A program made the translations under genes and the position numbers. 64,000 bases of DNA from Minutocellus sp. GHC0000111 (taxonomy: Eukaryota). The stretch lies in contig OZ361257.1 of the NCBI GenBank assembly GCA_977018835.1, positions 1,240,001 through 1,304,000 of the forward strand, given 5' to 3'. Under the pieces are notes generated by a model. It was not told the DNA's origin, did no database searches, and worked only from the letters and a program-made list of their open reading frames with translations. Positions 37,877-50,075 of the stretch are shown here, in pieces. Within the stretch, counting starts at the first letter, position 1, and the number at the start of each line of letters is the position of its first letter.

Positions 37877-38022
37877 TAGTATAATGCTTATATAAAGTAA
37901 AAGGATTTTGCGCACATGTAAAGTTGATATATTGGCCAATTACCGGTACCGGCGCTGGTACCGGTAGATAGCAGCCAGCCAGTCCTTGGCTTTTCAATTC
38001 TTGCTTTGCTATGCTCGCTCGG

Positions 38023-40645
38023 CACAGCCCCATCTCGTCTTGTTTCGCCGGTCGGATGAAGCGTTTTTCGGCAGAAGACGAACACTTCACGAAGAAACCC
38101 ACCAAAACCCAATCTCGTTCGTCACCCATTCTTTGACCGTCCAACTCCATGGTGGTCCGTCGGCGTTGCGCCGGCGTATAACTATATTTTCGTACCAAAC
38201 ACGCATTCATCATCATGTTTGGATGTAGTTGAAGCTTACTGTGTCCTCAGATTGGCCTCCGCTGCGTATCAACGCCACGAACCATCGGCCTACTTTTCCT
38301 CCATCTGTCGGCCGTTCGTTTCTCTGGGGTGGTACCATTGCTCCGTCTTTGTGCTCGTCGTGCTCCCGTTGTGATCCCCAGACCCTCTGGTGCTTTCCCA
38401 CGTTGTTGTTGATGACAAACTGCCGGGATTGCGCCGCACCCCCCGCATGACCGACTCTCGCTGATCCCGACCGATCGCATCCCCACTCGACCTCCCGGAA
38501 TTCCGACAATAATTTTGCGCCCGAGAGGAGACAGATAGTATTGGGATATGTTTATGCAACAATCAACCCGACAAAGGGACTTTTTGGTCTGGGAGATAAA
38601 TGGGTGAGTTAAGAAGGACGTGATGTGTTTGTTTGGGTGTACTATTTACTTTTTTGCTCAATCGCGATACTGTTTGTAAAAGTTGGATTATGCAATTCAT
38701 TTGTTGTTGTGTAGTAGTAGTGTAATTTCATTTTCTAATTTTATACATGCCCTGCTCCCATCTCTACATCCTCATCTCCATCGGTGGCCATCATGATCAC
38801 TTGTTGGCGCTTGTCATCAGTTTCTGCTTTAACAGCTTCGGTCCTTGTCCTTTTCCTTGTTCTTGCCACCCGAGAGTTTCGCTCCCGCCTCTCCTCGACC
38901 TTTGGATTGGATGCCCTCTCCTCAGCCTTGAACTGCGCCGTCGGTTGGGCCTCATGTCCCTTGACGCCCTGAGTCCGACGATCTTCCTTAACGCCCTCTT
39001 GGTGGGCTCGCTCTACAAACGATTCGTCGAGCCAACAGATGCCGCCCCATCCATTCTTCACTAGCCAAATGTGTTGGTCCAAGATGTGATCTTCGAGTAA
39101 GTGCCACTTGGGCGTCATGCTAATGCCGATTGCCCGTGCTTGCTTGAGGGCACTTGCAATCAATGCTTCAAGCTCTCTCACAGCCTTCTTTGCCTCATCA
39201 TCCCATTTCATGTGCACCATTTCAGAAACCTGGAACACATTGCGTCAAGAGTGTGGAGCAAATTAGAGCAAGCTTTGCAGAGCTCTTTGATGTCGTCATC
39301 CGTCATGCCATCTTCCTCGTGATTGTGCTCTAGGAGAGTTCCTTAAGTGGAGGTGTTGTGGTGGATGAACTCTGTTGTCCTTGGTTTCTTCTTGTTGTTG
39401 CCATCAGAAATATTAATGGATAAAGCTCTCCAGCATTCTGCCAGCACTGCCCTCATTTTACCTGAGTCGGCCGCCTCAATGCCGGCCTTTTTCAGGAAAT
39501 GGAAGTGAGGGGCATCGTCATCCTCGGCATCATCGACAGCTCCCATCTCTGGCTCGCCATCACCGTGCTTCTGACGATTGATTCTTCTCAAAGTGCTGCT
39601 GCATGCATGCTTCATGTGCAGCGTCCTCTCTTGCAACATCAGCTTCGTCCTCATAACAGGGCACACAGTCCTCGTCTTCGTCGTCATCGTCCTCACTGAT
39701 CTCGCCGGCCTCCGTCGTGGTCAGGGTGCCCACCGTCCCAACATCGTCGTCATTGTCCCACCCATCGTCCTGGCCATTGCACACCCACCAGGGAACTTCT
39801 GGGCCTCGAGCAACATCTGCCTGTTGATTTCGTAGTCCATCGCCGCACATCCCACTGCCATGTGTGGTGCGACCGACTTGAGGAATGCATTGCATGCCTT
39901 CGTCAAATTGAGCCGCGGCGGCGGCATTTCGAGGCGAAATTGTTGCTCGACCGTGACCATGTCGTCATGTCGAAAGCCAGCCATCCATCCATCATCATGG
40001 AGAGCGTCGGCTGCACAAGGATTGATAGAACCGAGGCGAACAAACATGCTCTTTTTGCATGGGGTTCGCTGAACGTCGTCGGCAAGGCAGTGTCTTGATA
40101 CCATTTCATCCCATCCATTCTGGTTGTCTGTCCTCACAAATGGCACATCGCAGTCTAGTCTTCGTGTTTCTTCTTCTTCAAACCCAAGGTGCCCGCAGCG
40201 TGCATGACGGCGCCGTACATGATGGGACTGCATCCCAACACATTCATCAAGGAGTCGTTGTTGTTGCCGATGAAATTGTAGTAATGAAGTTCCTTTCTGC
40301 GAAGACGGACGAGTAGTTCAGCCAGGGCGTCCTGCACCGCAACACTCTGTCTGCGGTGTTGACCGCGGGATTGCGGCCGTTATTTTTTTTGCTCATGGAG
40401 AGTTGTGGATCGAGACCAACGGGAATATCACCAGGATGTCGGGAGTACCTGGTTGGTCTCGTGCCGTAATTCTCCCACACCAGCGCGAGATATCGCCTTC
40501 GTTCTGCACGTAGCGGCGGCAATTTGAATTTTTGCCGCCATGGTGGCTCGCGTTGGGCGCGCCGGTCGGTTGCTTCGCGCGCCGGCCGGCCACCGAAAGT
40601 GCGACCAAAAGTATGCGAGTCATCCGGCTGGCAGATGGTGCTGTG
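38023..40645 (-). mobile_element. Internally deleted CAC-ended DNA transposon of the RAG1/Transib/Chapaev type with asymmetric ends
   Basis: Left end CACAGCCCCATCT and right end (reverse strand) CACAGCACCATCT match at 12 of 13; both are followed by CGGATGA; GG on both flanks; encloses a transposase remnant. Confidence 0.75.
38741..40396 (-). pseudogene. Decayed RAG1/Transib/Chapaev-like transposase (N- and C-terminal parts; core apparently deleted near 39345)
   Basis: TPKWHLLEDH...GGICWLDESFVERAHQ aligns with the H-x4-H zinc ligands and catalytic Glu of RAG1 (HKTLAH...GSIGAWASEGNESGNK) and with Chapaev ERFHQ; many stops and frameshifts. Confidence 0.7.
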
Positions 40646-43600
40646 GGAGGCGGCCACAGCAAAACACGTGCGTAGAAACGTGCGGTCTGTCGTAGAACCT
40701 GCTACTAAATCATTTTCGGTAGTGCCACGTCATTTCGAACCGACCAAACCTGCCCATCTCTTTTCACAAAAGTAACGCGCAGCTCTAATCTCATACCCCA
40801 GACGACCACCAAGATGACATGCAACCACCATGCCCGCCTCAGTATCCCTTCTCTACACATGTGCCTTGGCTAGTGAGTCGTCATTCTGAGCCTCTCGCTC
40901 CTGAAACTGACGAAAATCGACTTTCGGCGCATGTCACCGACCGACCTCGACCTCCACGACAGCTACAATCGCAAAGAAAAGTAACGACGACGTCAAGCTG
41001 ATGAGAGAATGCCGACATTTGACGACTTAAGATCGCCCTGATGGTGTTGTCGAGAGGCGGTGAGGCAGTGGTGTTGAGTTCGTACGCACAAGAGTCGTGA
41101 AACGCCGGCACCCTCCAAAAATTCTGCAATCAGGTTTCGTCTCAAAACCGGCTCTCAATGTAAATGTGACCTTATTGCTCGAAAAAATCCGCTAAGAGTG
41201 TCTATGCAACTTTTGACATTTCGCTACCATGACTCTACTGGGGCGATATACGTGCTTCTTCTGCGGTTTGGGTATCACCAAGCGGATCAATTCGTTGAGG
41301 CTTTGTGGATTTGCAGCAAGTTTTCCGGTGATGGGACAAGCGCCAACATCAGATGAGGTACAATAGTTCTTGAAATTGAACCCTGGGACACTGATTCTCG
41401 TTCAATCCGGCCAAGGTATGTAATAGAGAATGGAAGTGTATGTGTTGATTGTTGAGTTTGTGTTTGGAACCCATTGCATTCTCACACAATGACAAGTAAA
41501 ACCGAAACTTCCAGATTCTCCTCAACTTCTCCACCGCAATATCATAATTGCCACAGGTATACCATTCTTCGCCAAATCGATGATGTCGAGGCTTCCATTT
41601 GGACGGCATGTACCCACGATGAGGTCCGATGGCAATCTTTTGGCAGTTGGGTCGATAGTTCGGCCAAACTATGTCATGTTGTCATTTTTAGAGGGTAACT
41701 TTTATTGTGCTGGGAGGTCAAAAATACCAAGATGACGATTGTTTGGGTCCATGCGCGTCCATTCAACACACCAGTACCTTATTCCCGCCCGGATATGATA
41801 TAAGGTGGCTCATTGATGGAAAGTTTCGCGGGGTTGCTTGAAAGATTGACGATTTCATGAGCATCTGAATGTTTCGTGGAGGTCGACGCCTGATGTCGTG
41901 GGGTGCTGATCCCAAATTCCAATGTTGATACTGAACTACAAGGAATCACAACTACTCGATAAGAAGGGCATTAAACAACGGTCCTTGATATACCCGAGCG
42001 GCCTCCATGCTAATGAAAAGTCCTTTGTGCTGGTAAGGAAAGTAATGGAGGCAAATGGATGTGAAAATCTGACGATTTTATTGTAAACCTCGGCGGTCGT
42101 CGACCTCCACGAAGAGTCAGGGCCTATAACTCAACAAATAATCACGAACTCAATAACACTCTCATAGTCCCACCTCAGGGTGTTTATCTAGTGCGACTCT
42201 ATGGGTAGTAACTTTGGTAGAATGGCTTACTTGGCTATTTATAGATGTTGCACTATCTGAGAGTAAGGTCGGGGCCGTCGGCAGCCCCGTTGCAGCTACT
42301 GCTGATGATTGTGGCTACTAAGCTTCACAGAGTGGACAAGTATACATCATCTATGTAAAAATAACTTCTTATATGTATTTATAATGGAACGAAAACAAAT
42401 AGAATACTCTTGGTTGCATAAGCATGCCGATCTATCACCATCCTCTCTCAGCAAGGTTGAACTCCTGCAATTGGGCTGAGGCCCCATAAAAAATTGAATG
42501 CAGTCAATAAATTGATGACCATAACTCGCAGCAACCCAATGAAACTCATCAAAAGTCAAAAGATACATACAATAGAAAGGTATCTGCATGGAAGTGTTCA
42601 CGAGTTTGCTTGCACGGGGCGAATAGTATCAATTCCATGTCTGCAGTTCGAGGCGCCTTCGCTTCCAGCCCGTTTCATCCAGAAATCCCACATGCACCGA
42701 GAAGACATGATACCTGCCCCCGTTCTTCACCACCAGGCAATTTCCAACATCCTCACATATGAAGGTGTACGACAGAACCAATGAATCCAGTGAAAATCCA
42801 TCTACATCCATGTTGTCGGCACCGACAGGTCCACTTTGTGGTCAGATTTCTGTCTCGAGCATGCTCATTCAAAGTCGATTGAACGCCTATTGACGCAAGA
42901 TGGGCCACCTGTAAGGAAGTTCGGAAGGACCCATCGACCCACATACCCTTCAATGCCACGGCCCTAACCTCAAGCTACTTGGATTGGTCGTCACTCGATC
43001 ACATGTGCTGCAATTGTCACCGCAAAACATCTGGTCGGGCTGCCGTCAATTCTCGGGTTGGTCTGTAAATTTTTTTAGCTTGCGCTTCTCTTTCGCCACA
43101 GACATGGTGGCTACTGTCTCAAATTCAAGGGGGGTCTGGAATGTGGCCGAGGATCTTAAGTTTGAATTTGAGACTGTAGTGAGCGGGTCGGTGTTGTGAT
43201 ACTGGAGGCTCATGTCGGGTAACACAATCGAATCAAAACTTGTTCTTGCGTTTTTGCTTGCTTTGTGCGCGATGTTGTCGGACAGATGAAGGTGCGCGCT
43301 GAAAATGTCTTTTACCTGCTGCACATGCTTGGGTGTTTGCACTTTATCTCACTAGTAAAATTCCTTACATTTTGTGTCAGATTAATTTTTCTACGTAGGA
43401 ATCAGTACATTCCTACCACAGACGAAGGCTGTTCTGCTGCGGGCGGCGGCGGCGGGAGGCTACGAGTTGGTACGTACGTATATAATACGTACGTACGAGA
43501 TGAAGACTGTTGGGCCTGCTGCCCGCTGCATGGTGGGAAAAAGTGGTTGGTCGGTGTTGACATTTCGTTTTCTAGAACAGTAACACCGGCATCGTTATTT

Positions 43601-45378: not shown

Positions 45379-45637
45379 CACAGCACCATCTGCCAGCCGG
45401 ATGACTCGCATACTTTTGGTCGCACTTTTGGTGGCCGGCCGGCGCGCGAAGCAACCGACCGGCGCGCCCAACGCGAGCCACCATGGCGGCAAAAATTCAA
45501 ATTGCCGCCGCTACGTGCAGAACGAAGGCGACATCTCGCGCTGGTGTGGGAGAATTACGGCACGAGACCAACCAGGTACTCCCGACATCCTGGTGATATT
45601 CCCGTTGGTCTCGATCCACAACTCTCCATGAGCAAAA
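45379..45637 (+). repeat. 259 bp inverted copy of 40387-40645 (12-type transposon end through the ATG)
   Basis: Only two mismatches seen by eye; both copies run from CACAGCA to ATGAGCAAAA. Confidence 0.95.
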
Positions 45638-46735
45638 TGGCAAAGACGATGCTGTGAGCACGAGTGCCAGTGGTGCTCTTGAAACACCCCCAAGCGCACC
45701 CCCAAAGCTGAAGGAGGTGGCGCTAGTGCTGGGAAAGTTGCTGCTGCTCTTGCTCCTCCTGCTGCTGTTGCCAGTCAGAGCACTGTTGCCATCAGTTCAC
45801 CTTCAAAGTCACCATCAAAACAGCTCAACCTGGACATTCTTGACATCAAGGTGAGACCAAGGACGTTGTTGTCCAGAAGCACAACAGTGCCAAGGAGGCC
45901 CGTGGTGGTGGAGCCAGTGGCTACAAGCTCACACAGTGAACCTCTCTGGTGTGGTCACAACCTCAGGCAGAGCCAAAGTTGTGGGTGTCGTCAACAACCT
46001 CGTAGACAGGCGCAATGCCCCTTGCTGGATTAATTCTTAAGCCTGATGTTCTCATTGACACTCTTCAAGCTTTGACCGAGAACCCCCATCTTGCGTGCGT
46101 CTCTGACCTTGCAAAGAGTGCCAAAGAGTTAGGTTCCTTTGCGCGACATTCCTTGCGGTGCTGATGTTGGGAAGCTGTCCTGCTCCAAGACTGGGTCAGC
46201 TTTTCCAATCACAACCACCATGTTTTCCCTGGACGTGTCAGAGAAGATTCGCCCTCCTGCCGAGGAGGCTGTTTGCCTGGTGCAAATGTTGCACGAAGTT
46301 GTGACATCCAAAGTGTTCAAGGAGGCCTGCACTGACATGATGGTGAACGGCGGTGGGCGGTGGGCCAAGCTTGGCTCTCAGATTGAGCAGGACAACCACT
46401 CCTGTTGGGTCATTTTCAAGGGGTGCAACCTGGAGGTTGTTGATCCTTCACCCCTGACTGAACACAGTTTTGATGGACAAAGACATCAAGGAAGCCATGT
46501 CCTTCTTGACTGACGGCGTTCCCCCTGGACGCTGGGCTGCCGATGCTTCGTTGCGGCAGTTTTGATGGACAAAGACATCAAGGAAGCCATGTCCTTCTTG
46601 ACTGACGGCGTTCCCCCTGGACGCTGGGCTGCCGATGCTTCGTTGCGGAAGATTGCTTACAAGGATGGGAGCACTCCAGCTGGCACGTTTGCGGAGGAGT
46701 GAGGAAGTGAAACTTTGTTCTCAGGGTGGCTGCTT
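45628..46735 (+). pseudogene. Decayed cargo ORF behind the second transposon end
   Basis: Starts at the repeat-supplied ATG; broken frames such as 46139-46513; TpA- and CpG-poor; not visibly similar to the transposase. Confidence 0.4.
46465..46648 (+). repeat. 92 bp tandem duplication, apparently exact
   Basis: CAGTTTTGATGGACAAAG...CTTCGTTGCGG at 46465 and 46557. Confidence 0.95.
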
Positions 46736-47853
46736 TCTGGTGGATTAAAATACTTTGCATTGTCTTAGGTAAGGGCTTGATCACACTTCAACCACAAAAA
46801 AAACACCAAACACACAAACACAAACACAAACCACTGTAAAACAAATGAAAAACGTTAAGCGCAAAAGTCATGAAGGAGGTCAAACACTCAGTCACAAATT
46901 CAGTCAGACCCCATTTTGCAATCAAAAAATCAAAAACTGTAATCAAACTACATAGTGATCAAAAAAGCCCCTCTTGTTTTTGCACCTGTTTGCTCCTCAC
47001 TGTGTGCTTCAACTTCTGCTAGTGCACCTCTCACTCATTTTTGTGTTCTTCACCTCCAGTTTTGGCACACATGGCATCTCTGTCAGTGATGCCAGACAGG
47101 AGAAGTCTGTTCTTCCCCCCCCTTTCAGGCCTCAAAAAGCCATTGCTGTGTCAACTCCCTGTGCTCGTGCACTCGCCTAGTGTTGACGAGGTGTCAATGG
47201 CTTGCAGCTCAACCAGCGTGTTCCAGCAACACAGGAGGCTCTTCAAGATGATGAGAAGCTGCATTGTTTCCTTAAATGTTGCCGAGATTGGGAGCACAGT
47301 GGAGCTGAGCAACACAGGGAACACTGTGTTGCAAAGCCCTCAGTTTTTGTGACAGCCCCATCTTGGTGCTTGGTGCTTGAAGTCAGCCCTCTTGGTGTGC
47401 CATCAAAGGGGTTTAGCTACTTTTTCATGGACAAGAAGGTAAAGGAGAAGATGAGCTTTGCTCTTTTGCACCAGACGCTAAAGCGTGGGCTGGCAAGGGC
47501 TTCCCTCAGGATGAAGCTGATGCCAGCAGCGCACAGCCCATGCCTGGTGAGGCTGTCTGCCAGCTTGGTTGCCGGCCCCAAAGAAGTTTGGTCAATCAAG
47601 GTCCGGTCACCCTTTAAATTGCTATTTGAGGTCAAGGTGAAAAGGACCTGCAGTGGCGGAACTTGTGGCTTCAAGTTGTGCTTGCCACTGAGAAGCCAGC
47701 AGGACGGGGCACAGTGGACATTGACTCTCTTCATGATGGGAACCCATGCCTTACGGTTTCAGAGGATTTGTAGAGGGCACACCAATAACCCCTAAAAAAG
47801 GTCATTCTTGCACCCATTTCTCATTTCCCACCACGTGTTTTGAGTTCCAGCTT

Positions 47854-48569
47854 TAGGTGAGCCGCTCGACCCAAAAACTGGACATTCGTCTTTCCGTCGT
47901 CCGTGTTTCCAACGCGGCGAAGTACGGGAAAAGTCGCAATTTCCTGCCGGACCAACTTTTCCCCCTGAAATATGGCAAAAAGACTTGATCGAGCCGGCCT
48001 GCCTCGCTTACGTCCCCATTCTAGACACATTCAAGGTTGGGGACATCGAAGGTCCGGCTCGAAAATTCCGCACACAGGCTGAGCTATCGAGGGGGAAAAA
48101 TCACGCACAAAAAACGATGACGACGCACGAAAATTTGCTCTCATTGGCGGCCGATTCGGGGGCGGATACGAACAAAAACCACAACAATCAACCATACAAA
48201 CATTTTCATACATATCTTGGGCGCGTATCTCTGCAATTCTGGGTGGATTGGGCGGCTGTGGCTCTCACGGTATCACTTCTCATCCGCGGCCCTTTTTCGC
48301 GTACTCGAACACAGGTTGATTGTTTTGATTTATATTTTCTCATACAATAGCATGCCAATCAAGCTGAAACTTTCGCATGCGTAGCGCAATGGTATCGGCC
48401 AGCCTCGGGAATGCCCATATCTTACCTTGCAAATGTGTAGCGGCCAGGAGCGGGGGTCACCATGATGAGCTTCGTTCGGGAGAAAAAATGGACGGACGTC
48501 AGTCTTTCCGTCGTCCGACAACGCGAGCGAAGTTAGCAAAATCTCCAATGTCCTGAAGTGCCTCACCTA
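47854..48569. mobile_element. Candidate non-autonomous element
   Basis: TTTAGGTGAG at the left and CTCACCTAAA at the right; 16 bp direct repeat GTCTTTCCGTCGTCCG near both ends (47888, 48502). Confidence 0.35.
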
Positions 48570-49554: not shown

Positions 49555-50075
49555 TTATTTGGTGGTTCGCGGTTGATGAGGTTTGATGTGCTGCCACTGC
49601 CGCTGTGGTGTGATTGCTGCTGCGGCTTGACATGCTGGACGTTTTTAGACACATGCTGGTCTGTGTTGATGTGCTGCTGGCGGTTGGTTTGATCAGCTGC
49701 CGCTATGGATGAGAGGTTTGATGTGCTGCGGGGGTGGTCTGATGTGCTGCGGCTTGACATGCTGGACGTTTTGACATGCTGCCGCGGTTGATGAGGTTTG
49801 ATGTGCTGCCGCTGCCGCTGTGGTTTGATTAATGCTGCGGCTTGACATGCTGGATGTTTTTAGACATGCTGGTCCATGCTTGGCGTTCGTTTTGATGTGC
49901 TGGTCGATTTCTTGATGTTTGATGACATGCGGGTAGAATTGATTTGCTGCGGTTCGATACGCTGAACGTTTTGACATGCTGCGGGTGGTGAGTATGGTTT
50001 GATGTGCCGCTGCGGTTTGATTGCTGCTGCGGCTTGACATGCTGGTTGTTTTGACATGCTGCTGCGGATTTGATG
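49555..50075. repeat. Degenerate minisatellite
   Basis: Recurring GCTGCGGCTTGACATGCTGG, TTTTGACATGCT and GGTTTGATGTGCTG blocks; related motifs at ~48740-48820. Confidence 0.8.

Follow-up and report, generated by a model that had tools for sequence, protein, structure and literature searches.

A many-copy diatom transposon with one long and one short end, and relatives predicted to carry a RAG1-fold transposase

The window analysed here, a stretch of 64,000 nucleotides from Minutocellus sp. GHC0000111, contains a transposon of 2623 bp whose two ends share an outer and an inner block of sequence, adjacent to each other at one end and 11 nt apart at the other. Structure prediction and analogy with known systems suggest, with a probability of roughly 0.55, that this non-autonomous, many-copy element is moved by a transposase supplied in trans, which would have the core fold of RAG1 and the motifs of Chapaev, and which would pair one short end with one long end.

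Ends, boundaries and copies of the element

The long end (from 38023, plus strand) reads CACAGCC, 23 nt, CGGATGA, and the short end (from 40645, minus strand) reads CACAGCA, 12 nt, CGGATGA; the initial annotation had given both coordinates and sequences exactly. Global alignment of one end with the other has a single optimum, consisting of an outer block of 13 nt (12/13 identical), one gap of 11 nt and an inner block of 13 nt (11/13 identical), which bears out the 11-nt insert that had been claimed. The designation "12/23" arose because distances were counted from the heptamer to CGGATGA, and the figure varies with the start chosen for the second motif. The inner shared block begins 6 nt ahead of CGGATGA in both ends, and therefore the 11-nt offset is the firm feature, as a caveat of the initial annotation had rightly held. 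A description as two blocks, separated by 0 nt at one end and by 11 nt at the other, suits the ends best. The features of the element are as follows.

38023..40645, minus strand: whole non-autonomous element, 2623 bp, with no target-site duplication beyond GG (from depth, contigs and flank comparison)
38023..38059, plus strand: long (3') end, with 13-nt outer block, 11-nt insert and 13-nt inner block (from alignment; boundary from contig ends and depth)
38741..39330, minus strand: C-terminal part of the transposase, with K-x-H-x4-H and E-x3-E-x2-HQ and a frameshift near 39215
39330..39331, minus strand: internal deletion junction (from tblastn against the relative P0001)
39331..40396, minus strand: N-terminal part of the transposase, frameshifted, with ATG at 40396 (from tblastn and HMM matches)
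40620..40645, minus strand: short (5') end, with no gap between outer and inner block, on the upstream side of the transposase start (from alignment; boundary from the second copy)
45379..45637, plus strand: partial second copy, the first 259 bp of the short end, 99% identical (from sequence match)

The likeness of the inner blocks moderately exceeds chance. Their score of 9 is reached by random window pairs with P = 0.0045 at offsets of 9-12 (a range picked after the 11-nt offset was known) and with P = 0.025 at any offset of 0-29, and comparison with shuffles gives P = 0.026; for the exact 7-mer CGGATGA alone, P = 0.10. CGGATGA is absent from the terminal regions of the element outside the two inner blocks. 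The end pattern, which was derived from these same ends, occurs 3 times in the window and 0 times in 100 shuffles. The inner block is GC-rich and terminates in CGGATGA, unlike the A-rich nonamer of Transib and RSS, and the caution that CGGATGA is not the vertebrate nonamer was well placed. The termini fit both the 5'-CA..TG-3' of the CMCT clade and the CAC...GTG of Chapaev. The short end sits 5' of the transposase start and the long end 3', and the ends are known from a single family, as one long end and two short ends.

Contig coverage was obtained from 4 of 23 runs (X1, X2, X3 and X18). Depth stays level along the left flank, rises steeply within the bin containing 38023 and drops past 40645. 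Unique left-flank contigs stop at 38023 in two of the four runs (X2 and X3), the flank contig of X1 extends 27 nt inside the element without any difference, and X18 has a gap-free contig starting at 38023, in which the two differences listed fall past the end motif. Thus, the contig ends and the depth jump place the left boundary where it had been annotated. The right boundary at 40645 likewise stands, from the short-end copy at 45379 on the plus strand (257/259 identical), in which the match ceases exactly at the heptamer CACAGCA. A long-end partner for this copy was sought and rejected, none being present within the window, and GACAGCCCCATCT at 47351, which is without an inner block, was rejected as an element end. 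In run X3 the element contig has a depth of 16,556 and the flank contigs 127-147, a rough 100-fold excess that is not a true copy number. The element is a transposon, as first proposed, and both of its boundaries are real. The end motifs are free of differences among the 40 of 129 substitutions and 12 of 41 indels listed, and a spacer constant across copies is hinted at among these. In run X2, depth over positions 39706-40290 exceeds that elsewhere in the element about 2-3-fold and many substitutions are shared, so that this segment probably represents a further, more divergent subfamily.

At the verified ends the flanks have GG alone in common, as the initial annotation had it, and a 5-bp duplication obtained by shifting the boundary by up to 3 nt was rejected, none being found. 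In X1, X2 and X3 the contig bearing the right flank has 87-135 other letters ahead of 40646, and none of the joints listed (15 of 18) links 38022 to 40646. The right junction of the element copy seems to be absent from these three runs and may be the product of a later, adjacent rearrangement, which would explain the missing duplication; since other DNA comes before the right flank in three of the four runs, the two flanks may stem from separate insertions. One contig of X2 runs from 40645 into the left end, 4 letters separating the terminal GTG from CAC; its depth of 196 is near that of single-copy contigs. The simplest reading of this junction of a 12-end with a 23-end is a head-to-tail tandem with a shared 4-bp duplication, an excised circle being the alternative. 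From this one contig of one run, the target-site duplication would probably be 4 bp, duplications in the CMCT clade being 2-5 bp long.

Transposase remnant and full-length relatives

The window copy is non-autonomous, because 575 codons including those for both catalytic Asp are missing. What precedes the junction comprises an N-terminal alpha/beta domain, an acidic linker and the start of the domain ahead of the DDBD; the deletion removes residues 151-725 of the closest relative, P0001, and with them the DDBD, both catalytic Asp, the CxxC and LH motifs and the coiled coil. The H-x4-H and downstream Glu that had been reported are present, in the ORF at 38744-39244. To read them as a mark of RAG1 or Transib was an overstatement, since C(2)C and H(3-4)H motifs are common to the whole CMCT clade (PMC12730594), and H-x4-H therefore does not single out RAG1. 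The identical deletion junction occurs in 8 of 9 close protein clusters, which hold 188 of 197 member sequences, so that the deleted form would be the one that was amplified, moved in trans. The sister families P0006, P0007 and P0010 (40-73% identity) are likewise present as internally deleted forms, the junction differing from one family to the next. By arithmetic the undeleted element would be about 4.35 kb long. At its cut-offs Pfam assigned no domain to the remnant or to 9 relatives, and no kelch (RAG2-like) domain was found in the six element ORFs scanned, which are those of the deleted copy and not of the full-length element; some 700 bp at the 3' side are unoccupied. Nine RNA runs contain 0.31-0.48 of the words of the window, a figure for word content and not for expression.

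P0001 is 97% identical to the remnant and has the entire core, its own N-terminus being missing. With the C-terminal piece as query, 113 representatives were retrieved, of which the 10 that were checked are unnamed or "hypothetical"; a homologue search with a 12-sequence profile returned close copies only. The motif residues D339, D438, C455, C458, H527, H801, H806, E827 and E831, which fit the definition of the CMCT clade (PMC12730594), show no variation in 12 of 12 proteins (P0001 and relatives of 20-31% identity), and their layout in P0001 (C455-x2-C458, L-H527, H801-x4-H806, E827-x3-E831) includes the C(2)C, LH and H(4)H motifs of Chapaev. By analogy, E831 would be the catalytic Glu. Behind the LH motif lies a coiled coil of about 120 residues, and the full-length transposase, of about 1100 aa, combines this long insertion with an N-terminal domain of no recognised type. 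Among 10 long proteins (7 distinct clusters), none has a CxxC before the first Asp, the place of the Chapa zinc finger, and a RING before the core is likewise absent from the long proteins of the family. The C-terminal CCGHC tail (CTT) was found in 0 of 10 proteins, and a GRP, GRK or GRR triplet ahead of the first Asp in 3 of 10, at differing positions in a weakly modelled region.

The AlphaFold model of P0001 (mean pLDDT 79.5) predicts the RAG1 core fold from the DDBD to the C-terminal domain, with the DDBD, RNase H, ZnC2, ZnH2 and CTD parts that Transib and RAGL transposases share. It matches RAG1 residues 460-1007 with Z 22.2 (rmsd 4.1, 471 aligned residues, 12% identity), followed by BbRAG1L (Z 20.2), HzTransib (15.0) and the P element (11.1); the Foldseek E value is 4e-12. 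Identity in the structural alignments is 8-12% to RAG1 and Transib structures, and neither P0001 nor two profiles gave a sequence match at E 10 to RAG1, BbRAG1L, HzTransib or the P element in the PDB. Of the RAG1-like protein proposed in the initial annotation, the fold is retained as a prediction. No Chapaev structure is among the fold matches of P0001, and RAG1 may therefore win by default. The N-terminal region is modelled with low confidence (pLDDT 60.9). A fold search with the N-terminal 456 residues of P0012 returned only the RAG1/Transib DDBD (Z 7.2-7.9), with no nonamer-binding domain among the matches listed and a winged helix at just Z 3.1, and shows neither a new fold nor the absence of a nonamer-binding domain. 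In the ESM Atlas the N-terminal 200 residues had no usable match, and the core placed unnamed clusters above the RAG1 clusters, which is a lead only.

Placement in the CMCT clade and comparison with known systems

On its sequence features the diatom family is filed in the CMCT clade as a Chapaev-like lineage that is not a member of Chapaev, Transib or RAGL, because it has Chapaev-like motifs and no Chapa zinc finger, conserved GRP, CTT or visible RAG2. Of the group of RAG1, Transib and Chapaev named in the initial annotation, the family is nearer to Chapaev3 in its motifs and has no sequence match to RAG1 or Transib. An Arf-like protein encoded in the window belongs to a 90% cluster that also holds proteins of two named diatom species, in agreement with the diatom host given in the initial annotation. 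No relatives were found in prokaryote genomes or viral contigs, either by protein or by the exact end pattern. Scanning of metagenome contigs (48 of 64 parts) for the end pattern gave 120 loci with spacers of 9-31 nt, none of which matches the element by blastn or tblastn; a small spacer peak at 23 was set aside as unrelated, appearing by eye to reflect a shared coding frame. None of these searches yielded the end of a distant relative.

With Chapaev and Chapaev3 (PMC4079192 and PMC4411706) the family shares the CAC...GTG termini and the C(2)C, LH and H(4)H motifs, and possibly the duplication length (4 bp, where Chapaev has 3-4 bp); by eye, the motif surroundings of Garfield_BM (Chapaev3) are nearer to those of the diatom family than RAG1's are (PMC4079192). 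Unlike Chapaev, the diatom family has no RING before the core and no Chapa zinc finger, a feature of Chapaev, Chapaev3 and RAG1 (PMC4411706), and it differs also in its length of about 1100 aa, its coiled-coil insertion, its unrecognised N-terminal domain and its diatom host. No published long and short ends of Chapaev-like or diatom elements were found in the literature within reach, which excluded Repbase Reports, most subscription papers and figures. Two of four rows for Merrow (Chapaev3) in Fig. S6 of PMC4079192 have, by eye, an inner motif 9-10 nt deeper at the 5' than at the 3' end, whereas the two lamprey rows have no such shift; the Merrow motif is T-rich and of opposite polarity to the diatom element, and is a lead only. 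The Conan rows of that figure have the same first eight letters as the diatom long end.

Long and short transposon ends have been published for Transib, ProtoRAG, PflRAGL-A and AanRAGL (PMC9435367; PMC10629977), those of 12/23 type having been in print since 2005 (PMC1131882), and Transib has been termed the sole known case of 12/23 transposition outside RAG (PMC8355894). Transib5, Transib2_AG and TransibN1-3_AG, which have 12/23 ends, carry the short end 5' and the long end 3' (PMC1131882), as the diatom element does, and these families and the subgroup I Transibs (PMC9435367) likewise have a single RAG1-fold transposase, a CAC heptamer and non-autonomous derivatives. The diatom element differs from Transib in its GC-rich inner block where Transib has an A-rich nonamer, in the 5-bp duplication not seen at the window copy (whose flanks may be separate events), and in an enzyme with no sequence similarity and 8-10% structural identity to HzTransib. 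AanRAGL, from the pelagophyte Aureococcus, also has a stramenopile host and two-block ends with a 13-bp outer block, but its spacers of 4 and 13 bp give an offset of 9 bp against 11 bp in the diatom element, and it carries RAG2L, has 5-bp duplications and groups with RAG1, whereas RAG2 was not seen in the diatom element (PMC9435367). Vertebrate RAG1-RAG2, PflRAGL-A and ProtoRAG share with the diatom family the core fold (RAG1 460-1007) and a heptamer beginning CACAG, and a one-turn asymmetry is common to it, to RSS (11 bp) and to PflRAGL-A (10 bp; PMC10629977). Unlike RAG and RAGL, the diatom family has no nonamer, conserved GRPR/K or CTT, RAG2 is not seen, and identity is 11-12%. The ends of ProtoRAG are 27/31, with a short-end polarity as in the diatom element, and an asymmetric pair of them is more active than symmetric pairs (PMC8289069).

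Proposed pairing of unlike ends, alternatives and neighbouring sequence

By analogy with RAG and Transib chemistry, a transposase dimer would grip both ends by their outer 13-nt blocks, and the fold suggests that cleavage at CAC would proceed by nick and hairpin as in those systems. The inner 13-nt block would be read by an N-terminal DNA-binding module, which would occupy the place of the RAG1 nonamer-binding domain without being recognisable as one. With an offset of one turn, the block would face the same side of the helix at both ends, and a tilting dimer could accommodate one short and one long end. Because the N-terminal model is weak, the identity of the inner-block reader is a guess. 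The element would be moved in trans by the transposase of an intact relative, and integration would yield a short duplication, probably of 4 bp. The likeness of both polarity and offset size to the Transib and RAGL precedents was counted in favour of pairing. Against pairing count that mouse RAG1 without RAG2 is reported to have no 12/23 preference (PMC8355894), the diatom element having no visible RAG2, and that the GRP motif does not appear conserved in the 10 long proteins.

It is possible, though doubtful, that the same element and enzyme follow no pairing rule, an 11-bp indel having been fixed in the founder and tolerated, either because one turn preserves phase or because the enzyme reads just the outer 13-17 bp. 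The ends come from one family only, and the 11-nt offset could therefore be a single fixed indel; the outer block by itself is 12/13 identical, and invertebrate RAGL has been suggested to use mainly the terminal 15-17 bp, asymmetry mattering relatively little (PMC7204232). The unseen RAG2 and the unconserved GRP motif also favour such an indel, which the precedents in Transib and RAGL for both offset size and polarity argue against.

It is improbable that the element simply inherited asymmetric ends as a far-diverged member of Transib proper (subgroup I) or of RAGL. HzTransib scores below RAG1, which gives the best structural match, asymmetric TIRs occur in all subgroup I Transibs (PMC9435367), and the length of the target-site duplication is labile within Transib (bioRxiv preprint), but a structure-based identity of 12% compares with an average of 26% between RAG1L and Transib (PMC9435367), and there is no PDB sequence match, no CTT (0/10) and no A-rich nonamer. 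The motifs are Chapaev3-like, and RAG1 may lead by default among matches that include no Chapaev structure. It is very improbable that the inner block is a chance likeness and the true TIR just 13 bp, as the P of 0.10 for the 7-mer and the offset range set after the fact might suggest, given P values of 0.0045-0.026 for the whole block and no CGGATGA elsewhere in the terminal regions.

The design of unlike ends is likely to be older or more widespread than described, because the enzyme of the intact relatives is RAG1-like in predicted fold yet only distantly related. In vertebrates, the 12/23 rule is tied both to the nonamer-binding domain and to RAG2. A family that shares this offset and polarity, differs in the second motif and is only 12% identical to RAG1 would push the design deeper into CMCT, and, being recently amplified and apparently a one-protein system, would offer a direct test bed for the pairing rule; were the offset incidental, this would be an ordinary new diatom transposon family. 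More speculatively, there may be a protist-wide RAG1-fold branch, without RAG2, nonamer or recognisable nonamer-binding domain, that enforces one-turn pairing by its own N-terminal module. In that case, 12/23 geometry would predate the split of Chapaev-like from Transib/RAG transposases or would have arisen twice, and a one-protein system would reveal how pairing works. In published models of how RAG arose, asymmetric ends are already a feature of the Transib/RAGL ancestor (PMC9435367; PMC10629977).

Near the element, a gene for a UAA-family nucleotide-sugar transporter (Pfam PF08449; 35648-37876) ends about 150 bp to the left of the long end, and another multi-copy repeat (40792-41028), with raised depth and many divergent contigs, lies about 150 bp to the right of the element. 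An imperfect inverted repeat of 97 bp that starts CACAGAC (43097-43193) is possibly a tiny CAC-type element. Directly after the partial second copy, 45638-47900 is degraded and CpG-depleted (observed/expected 0.2-0.6), contains a 98-bp tandem duplication (46465-46654) and looks like an old methylated repeat. A region of degenerate tandem repeats is present at 49568-50061.
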